From Escherichia coli (GTDB lineage Bacteria; Pseudomonadota; Gammaproteobacteria; Enterobacterales; Enterobacteriaceae): a stretch of DNA of 64,000 nucleotides. Below are positions 35,901-38,900 of this stretch, one piece after another (positions within the stretch are counted from its first letter, which is position 1; each line of letters begins with the position of its first letter). The position numbers are program-made. The DNA lies in the NCBI RefSeq assembly GCF_003334315.1, contig NZ_QOWR01000006.1; one strand, given 5' to 3'.

Positions 35901-38900
35901 CCCAGAAATTTAAGGAAAAGTGGGCCACCGATCAGTGATGCCATCAGCCCAACCAGCAAACCGTAGACGATCACCGAACCGATATCTGCGCCCAGCTTAT
36001 TGGCAACATATAAAGCAGCCGGATGTGGAGGAACCACGCAGTGCACTGCCATCAATGCGGTACATAGCGGAATGGCAAGCTTTAATAATGAGGTATTGGT
36101 TTTTTTGGCAATTGAAAAAGCCAGAGGAATCAATAGCACGACGCCCACTTCAACAAACAGCGTGATGCCACAAATCAGGCCAACCAGCACCATAATGACA
36201 TCAACTGAAAGCCAGCGGCAGCGTTGAAGTGTCAGACCAATTCTTTCTGCGGCCCCGGATACTTCCATCATTTTTCCCAGTATCGTGCCAAGGCCGATAA
36301 CCGCTGCGAGGAACCCCAGCGTTCCGCCAATTCCACTTTCAATAGCATTTACCATATCCAGTGGCCCCATGCCCATCATCGTTCCCACGAAGAAGCTGGC
36401 CAGCAACAGCGCCAGAAACGGGTGGAATTTGAACTTCACGATGGTCAGTACAATTAACACGATGCTGATAAGCAGCGTGCTCACAACCCAGATTTGAGAG
36501 TGCATATCTCACCTTCCCCTGTGATTAACCTGATGATATTGGACAAAAAAACAACGCAGGCTGACAAACGATAAAATTTGCCTTTCACATGAGGTAAATT
36601 GCATCAATGGAGTGATTTACATCTAAAAATGAAGGTGAATTGAGATATGGTTCACTTTAGCTCATCTCATAGCTGAAATTTTGCCGCTATTTTTTTACAC
36701 TTAAGCGAAAAATGAGGTGATTATGGAACCCCTTCGTGAAATAAGAAATCGGCTGCTTAACGGCTGGCAATTATCAAAAATGCATACTTTTGAAGTGGCT
36801 GCCAGGCATCAGTCCTTCGCCCTGGCGGCAGAGGAATTGTCGCTGAGCCCCAGTGCGGTAAGTCACCGTATCAATCAGCTGGAAGAAGAATTGGGCATTC
36901 AGTTGTTTGTTCGTTCCCATCGCAAAGTGGAATTAACGCACGAGGGGAAACGTGTTTATTGGGCGCTAAAATCGTCGCTGGATACCCTGAACCAGGAAAT
37001 TCTTGATATCAAAAATCAGGAGTTATCGGGAACGTTAACTCTGTATTCCCGGCCCTCTATCGCCCAATGCTGGTTGGTGCCCGCATTAGGTGACTTTACA
37101 CGCCGGTATCCGTCTATTTCGCTCACCGTGCTCACTGGTAATGACAACGTCAATCTGCAACGTGCCGGAATCGATTTGGCGATCTACTTTGATGATGCGC
37201 CGTCAGCGCAACTCACTCATCACTTTCTGATGGATGAAGAAATCCTGCCAGTATGTAGCCCGGAATACGCTCAAAGACATGCTTTAACCAACACGGTAAT
37301 TAACCTGTGTCACTGTACGTTGCTCCATGACAGACAGGCATGGAGCAACGACTCCGGTACGGATGAATGGCATAGTTGGGCGCAACATTATGCGGTTAAT
37401 TTGCCGACATCTTCTGGAATTGGCTTTGATCGTTCTGATTTAGCTGTTATTGCCGCGATGAATCATATTGGGGTGGCGATGGGAAGAAAACGCCTGGTAC
37501 AAAAAAGGCTTGCCAGTGGTGAGCTCGTCGCGCCGTTTGGCGATATGACGGTGAAATGCCATCAGCATTATTACATCACCACATTACCGGGCAGGCAGTG
37601 GCCAAAAATTGAAGCGTTTATTACCTGGCTAAGAGAACAGGTAAAAACCACTTCATAATGAATAAAACCACGAGTTCCTGGTGTGCCTTATTCGGCCTGC
37701 TAGTTCGAATTTAATTTACGGTTTTTATGTGGTTTTAGGGATAAACACAAGGATGGTGTCCCCTGCAGGAATCGAACCTGCAATTAGCCCTTAGGAGGGG
37801 CTCGTTATATCCATTTAACTAAGAGGACAATGCGGCATGAGTATACCCGCTAATGGAGTGCGGGGTAAGTACGCTGCCGCTCGATTGCTTAAACCCTCGC
37901 CATTTATGCCGGGTTTTTATAATTTTTCTTAATGTTTTCCGCACGTTCTGCTTTTTGGCGTGCTTCTGCTTTACGCTTATTGCTCATGTCGTTACGAATC
38001 TGTGCATGACTCATTAACGCGAAGATAAAGGTGCCGCCGCAGATGTTCCCCGCTAAAGTAGGTAGTGCGAAGGGCCAGATGAAATCGCTCCAGTGCAGCG
38101 TACCGTTAAACACCAGATAGAGGATTTCAACAGAACCGACCACGATATGGGTGGTGTCACCCAGGGCAATAAGCCAGGTCATCAATATAATCACCACAAT
38201 CTTTGCCGCACCCGCTGCAGGAAACATCCAAACCATAGTGGCGATCAGCCAGCCGGAAATGATCGCGTTGGCAAACATCTCGCTGGGGGTGTTCTTCATC
38301 ACATCCATGCCGATTTTGACAAATGCATCGCGAGTTTCTTCATTGAAGATAGGCATATATTCAAATGCCCACGCCGCAATACCTGTCCCGAGAATATTAC
38401 CCAGCAGCACGACGCCCCATAACCGTATAAGTAAGCCGACGTTGCTCATTGTCGGTTTTTGCATGACGGGTAGTACCGCAGTCACGGTATTTTCGGTAAA
38501 TAATTGCTGGCGGGCCATAATGACGATAATAAAACCAAAGGTATAACCGAGATTCTCCAGCAAGAAGCTGCCCGGCACACCTTCCAGTTCGACTTGAAAT
38601 ATCCCTTTTGCCAGTAACGAAGCGCCCATCGACAGACCCGCCGCAATGGCTGACCACAGTAGCGCCACTGCGTCGCGTTCCAGCTCTTTTTCACCATCCT
38701 GGCGGATATGCTCATGAATTGCCATCGCCCGGGAGGGGAGTCGGTCTTCATCTATTTCTATTTTTTTGCCGCGCTCTTTTTCTTCGCTCTCAACTTCAAT
38801 TTCGTCGCTGTGTTGATCAATTTTGTCGTTGTCCATGGTCTCTTCTCTTGAATTAGCACGTATAGCTAAAGCGTAGCGGCTTTTTTGCTCGCAACTGACG

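Follow-up and report, generated by a model that had tools for sequence, protein, structure and literature searches.

The stretch of DNA analysed here (hereafter the window) comprises 64,000 nucleotides of an Escherichia coli contig and contains a single tRNA gene, which ARAGORN identified as a tRNA-Arg with anticodon CCT on the minus strand at 37754-37828. The Rfam tRNA model (RF00005) matched 37757-37828 with 63.4 bits (gathering score, 29), an Rfam search of the window returned no family other than tRNA, and alignment identity with the K-12 gene indicated that the tRNA is an intact argW, encoding tRNA-Arg(CCU). Beyond its 3' end lies dsdC (36723-37658, plus strand), which encodes the LysR-type regulator of D-serine detoxification and whose ORF, counted from the first possible start, comprises 313 aa and ends at 37658. 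Beyond its 5' end lies yfdC (37904-38836, minus strand), a gene of the formate/nitrite transporter family with a 310-aa ORF whose stop codon ends at 37904. Both genes were named from their ORFs together with the annotation of identical genomes, and in RefSeq genomes that are 100% identical over 37400-38100, dsdC, the tRNA-Arg gene and yfdC are found at the same offsets. The dsdC stop is 95 bp from the tRNA 3' end, and the tRNA 5' end is separated from the yfdC stop by 75 bp (37829-37903, as defined by the tRNA and ORF coordinates). ARAGORN, the ORFs and the annotation agree in this respect with the original prediction, which had described a minus-strand tRNA-Arg gene with dsdC about 95 bp from its 3' end and yfdC on its 5' side. 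The 75-bp spacer presumably carries the argW promoter; a simple consensus scan of it for sigma-70 sites was negative, and its aligned columns at 37829-37860 are those of K-12, with no differences. A consensus scan of the 95-bp spacer detected no terminator-like and no promoter-like site, and the fold of this spacer was not significant (z = -0.91).

In K-12 strain MG1655, the order of features is yfdC, argW, CPS-53, pawZ and then, 95 bp further on, dsdC. CPS-53, also called KplE1, is a cryptic prophage annotated at 2466369-2476583 that begins with intS, ends with torI and has yfdGHI and phage remnants in between, and its annotated length of 10,215 bp bears out the original prediction, which placed an element of roughly 10 kb starting with intS at the 3' end of this tRNA in K-12. 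The pawZ feature is a 15-bp pseudogene that is a copy of the argW 3' end. The backbone genes and their order are common to the K-12 locus and the window, and the att-proximal flanks are near-identical, but the window contains neither the prophage nor pawZ. With the exception of CPS-53, the window and K-12 are colinear between nupC and flk, and alignment of the interval to the K-12 junction and to other E. coli genomes yielded a clean join at a single core, an arrangement unlike that of K-12.

The core at this join is the 16-nt sequence CTGCAGGGGACACCAT (37753-37768, minus strand), which consists of the last 15 nt of argW and 1 nt downstream and is present in one copy in the window. The same 16-mer forms both boundary repeats of CPS-53 in K-12 and is annotated as the attP core in phages HK620 and Sf6. 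A duplicated 16-nt core bounding KplE1 has already been published and equals the core in the window (PMC2951348). When reverse-complemented, the window is identical to the K-12 attL from yfdC via argW to the core, and to the K-12 attR from the core via the 95-bp spacer into dsdC, such that yfdC is the chromosomal gene on the attL, or B, side (with the 75-bp spacer) and dsdC is that on the attR, or B', side (with the spacer at 37659-37752, which matches the K-12 DNA between pawZ and dsdC). The attP sequences of HK620 and Sf6 carry the complementary halves, and the 16-nt core is common to all five aligned sequences, so that the five-way alignment reads attB = B-O-B', attP = P-O-P', attL = B-O-P' and attR = P-O-B'. 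Likewise, where other genomes carry an element at the site, the match on the dsdC side and that on the tRNA side share exactly 37753-37768 of the window, corresponding to the duplicated core. At the level of sequence, then, the window stands to attL, attR and attP as B-O-B'.

Since the core is single and both flanks are purely chromosomal, no element is integrated at the site. What characterises a CPS-53/KplE1 lysogen, namely intS beside argW and torI with a duplicated core beside dsdC, is absent. Instead, a core identical to phage attP cores and prophage boundary repeats overlaps the 3' end of an intact tRNA-Arg(CCU) gene, its flanks equal the B and B' halves of the attL and attR of an occupied genome, and it is accompanied by no integrase, excisionase or other element DNA. 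The interval is almost certainly an unoccupied attB for the IntS family of tyrosine integrases.

The absence of element DNA was examined across the whole window. The last 23 nt of the tRNA, searched with up to three mismatches, gave one match in 64 kb, and the 16-nt core, searched with up to two mismatches, also gave one, so there is no second copy of either. A repeat search of 30000-46000 found no direct repeat involving the tRNA. Tblastn with the K-12 IntS and TorI proteins as queries returned only chance-level matches in the window (best E = 0.086), indicating no remnant of either gene. The 95-bp spacer is, base for base, K-12 chromosomal DNA from outside CPS-53, and it is still joined to dsdC in genomes in which the site is occupied; it is conserved backbone and not an island remnant. 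We therefore consider it practically untenable that the site is not clean and has kept a degenerate integrase, an attR-like repeat or a piece of an island, a reading refuted by the repeat, core, tblastn and K-12 spacer comparisons alike. With a second core and remnants of IntS and TorI lacking throughout the 64 kb, the site represents a clean unoccupied attB. The claims that the site is a prophage-free attB, and that no integrase fragment or repeat of the tRNA 3' end lies nearby, both held: the window corresponds to the chromosomal halves of the K-12 attL and attR, and neither a degenerate integrase or attR-like repeat nor a reference arrangement identical to that of the window was encountered.

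The DNA around the core is close to that of K-12. From 35500 to 39500, on both att sides, there is at most one mismatch per 500 bp, and BLAST gave about 99.8% identity for the dsdC-side flank. This near-identity speaks for a K-12 derivative engineered to lack CPS-53, or for an assembly in which the prophage was collapsed, explanations that we nevertheless regard as very improbable. Identity between the window and K-12 is 99.2-99.8% outside mosaic blocks around mlaA/yfdF and fadL; on one side, 37.7 kb contain 73 mismatches, the blocks around fadL reach 114 mismatches per 500 bp, and yfcU is intact in the window but a pseudogene in K-12. An engineered K-12 deletion strain was rejected on this sequence divergence. 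Moreover, natural isolates match the window at 100%, the junction coincides exactly with the natural core and recurs in 911 independent complete genomes, and nothing in the sequence points to assembly collapse.

A recombination breakpoint at the att core was also considered, as BLAST gave 99.8% identity on the dsdC side versus 95% over 4.4 kb on the yfdC side. Binned mismatch counts ruled this out, since they place the divergence at least 1.7 kb from the core, at 39500-40500 and 41500-43000. Within these two blocks, the window diverges sharply from K-12, reaching 114 mismatches per 500 bp, and their flanks contain 0-6 mismatches per 500 bp. The blocks cover the 3' end of mlaA with yfdF, and fadL, the phage T2 receptor according to the K-12 annotation, and the pattern suggests mosaic recombination. 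In other strains, yfdF is swapped for an unrelated hypothetical gene or is absent.

The occupancy of the site was surveyed in 5,426 complete E. coli genomes using 37400-38100 as the query, at least part of which was present in every one of them. A contiguous dsdC-argW-yfdC arrangement, defined as a single match location spanning 80% or more of the query, was found in 911 genomes (17%); because matching pieces were joined across gaps of up to 850 bp, a small insertion could be present in a few of these genomes. The dsdC 3' end and adjoining spacer are kept in 2,384 of the 5,426 genomes, and the site is empty in about 38% of the genomes with that flank. An intS-type integrase lies directly beside argW in 1,862 genomes (34%), counted as megablast-level DNA matches covering at least 80% of a K-12 argW-intS query. 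The remaining genomes, which were sampled only, contain other elements or rearrangements. The occupants include an 11.5-kb P22-like element that is degraded and contains intS, gtr-type genes, IS1, IS3 and torI (in genome H41), a P22-like prophage with a tailspike gene adjoining intS, and islands of a different type with recombinase or YeeU/antirestriction genes. The expectation that other lineages carry different islands at this site was thus borne out by P22-like intS prophages, both degraded and intact, and by integrative islands flanked by repeats of 20 or 24 nt.

In elements of the latter type, the att repeat reaches window position 37772 or 37776, giving repeats of 20 or 24 nt. The dsdC-side repeats of two such non-IntS islands are at 3354-3377 of locus L005 (24 nt, ATGGTGTCCCCTGCAGGAATCGAA) and 3358-3377 of locus L006 (20 nt). 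The first annotated island genes encode a recombinase-family protein in L005 and a YeeU antitoxin, a DUF987 protein and an antirestriction protein in L006. These features point to a different integrase family that may use an overlapping but longer att site.

The empty state is found on diverse backbones. The bloodstream isolate H7 has an empty site although its flanks are only 96.2% identical to the window, it lacks yfdF and its spacer is 99 bp, so the empty state is not limited to one lineage. Among genomes with 100% identity to 26000-50000, both states occur: H44 and many others are empty, and H41 is occupied. Because identical 24-kb backbones exist with and without the 11.5-kb element, occupancy turns over fast, outpacing the build-up of substitutions in the backbone, and is a weak lineage marker. 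The proposal that the empty site is a useful strain marker holds in part: it separates this strain from K-12, but it defines no lineage, given that 911 of 5,426 genomes are empty and that identical backbones are found in both states. We consider it an even call whether the argW site in this clone switches state on a very short timescale, with the window and its occupied siblings constituting a natural pair. If it does, the pair would record a recent event, either integration or precise excision, mediated by a module of the KplE1/Sf6 type.

The same genomes bear on how the site came to be empty. One history is that it was never lysogenised; another is that it was vacated recently, when IntS and TorI precisely excised, and so cured the strain of, a KplE1/Sf6-type prophage. 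In keeping with curing, H41, which is 100% identical over 24 kb of flanks, has its 11.5-kb degraded intS-to-torI element exactly here, many equally identical genomes are empty, and KplE1 is reported to be still able to excise (PMC2951348). Precise excision leaves no scar, however, and the sequence fits both histories; the H41/H44 pair fits a recent gain in H41 equally well, and the empty site on the 96%-identical backbone of H7 fits an old and widespread emptiness. Recent curing is therefore possible but, in our judgment, rather unlikely.

Several observations indicate which elements could enter an unoccupied attB of this kind. IntS is a heterobivalent tyrosine recombinase that, together with the directionality factor TorI, excises KplE1 (PMC2951348, PMC3509656), and conservation of the recombination module extends across the phages that target argW (PMC3509656). 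Integrases at least 95% identical to IntS are present in 23 phage records, including those of CUS-3, Sf6, HK620, HK633, IME10, Kapi1 and the Stx2 phage VT2phi_272. We propose that the site would be used by the IntS-type integrases of KplE1/CPS-53, Sf6, HK620, Kapi1, CUS-3 and some Stx2 phages. Recombination between attP and attB would insert the phage between yfdC-argW and dsdC; the core copy supplied by the phage would restore the tRNA 3' end at attL, beside intS, and the 15-nt tRNA fragment (pawZ in K-12) would stay at attR, beside torI/xis and dsdC.

Kapi1 provides a direct parallel. In E. coli KP7, the tRNA-Arg gene lay directly between dsdC and yfdC, with the site empty and the strain non-lysogenic before Kapi1 (PMC8787464). 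Kapi1 integrated at the KP7 site in 19 of 20 colonies, and in 0 of 24 when the att core was deleted (PMC8787464). The Kapi1 att is given as 17 bp, with an additional 5' A (PMC8787464), versus G at position 37752 of the window, and the exact match is limited to the 16-nt core of Sf6, HK620 and KplE1. In the core, its position at the tRNA 3' end and its yfdC and dsdC neighbours, the window is the same as the IntS-TorI argW attB of KplE1 (CPS-53), Sf6, HK620 and Kapi1, with no structural difference and only the G-for-A difference at 37752 outside the core. The copy of attB in the window is probably recombination-competent and would be open to integration by temperate phages of the IntS type, judging from its match to these systems. 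By integrase similarity, candidate users are seroconverting P22-like phages and at least one Stx2 phage.

Empty argW sites have been documented before. E. coli B and Crooks are tabulated without an element at argW (PMC3032704), and, by the published descriptions, argW in B, Crooks and KP7 is free of a mobile element, as it is in the window. The argW-dsdCXA region has also been called hypervariable (PMC8787464, PMC3032704). The hotspot is the same as that in the window, which has a full dsdCXA and neither csc genes nor an island. Moritz and Welch reportedly described, in 2006, a hypervariable argW-dsdCXA island in which a csc sucrose locus takes the place of dsdCX. Given the published KplE1 core, the reported hypervariability of argW-dsdCXA and the tabulated empty sites of B and Crooks, the site holds no novelty; the empty argW state here is correct, ordinary, well documented and already known. 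Its importance beyond annotation and strain description is small. The strain is without the CPS-53 genes intS, yfdGHI (O-antigen glucosylation), yodE and torI, and the census figures (17% empty, 34% with an intS-type neighbour) may serve in typing of argW occupancy.

Two further features were apparent elsewhere in the window. The fimbrial usher gene yfcU (49135-51780), which is an intact 881-aa ORF in the window and is annotated as a pseudogene in K-12, is split by an IS1 insertion in genomes that are otherwise 100% identical to that part of the window, and this insertion accounts for a length difference of ~777 bp between the window and those genomes. At the other end of the window, positions 1-75 are part of an IS186 copy whose terminal inverted repeat, CAACCCTTAAGTTAGCGCTTATG, ends at 75, adjoining nupC. 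These 75 bp match IS186C of K-12 at its opposite end; IS186C occupies the same nupC-pdeA position, so that the element appears to be present in the window's strain as well, but inverted relative to K-12.
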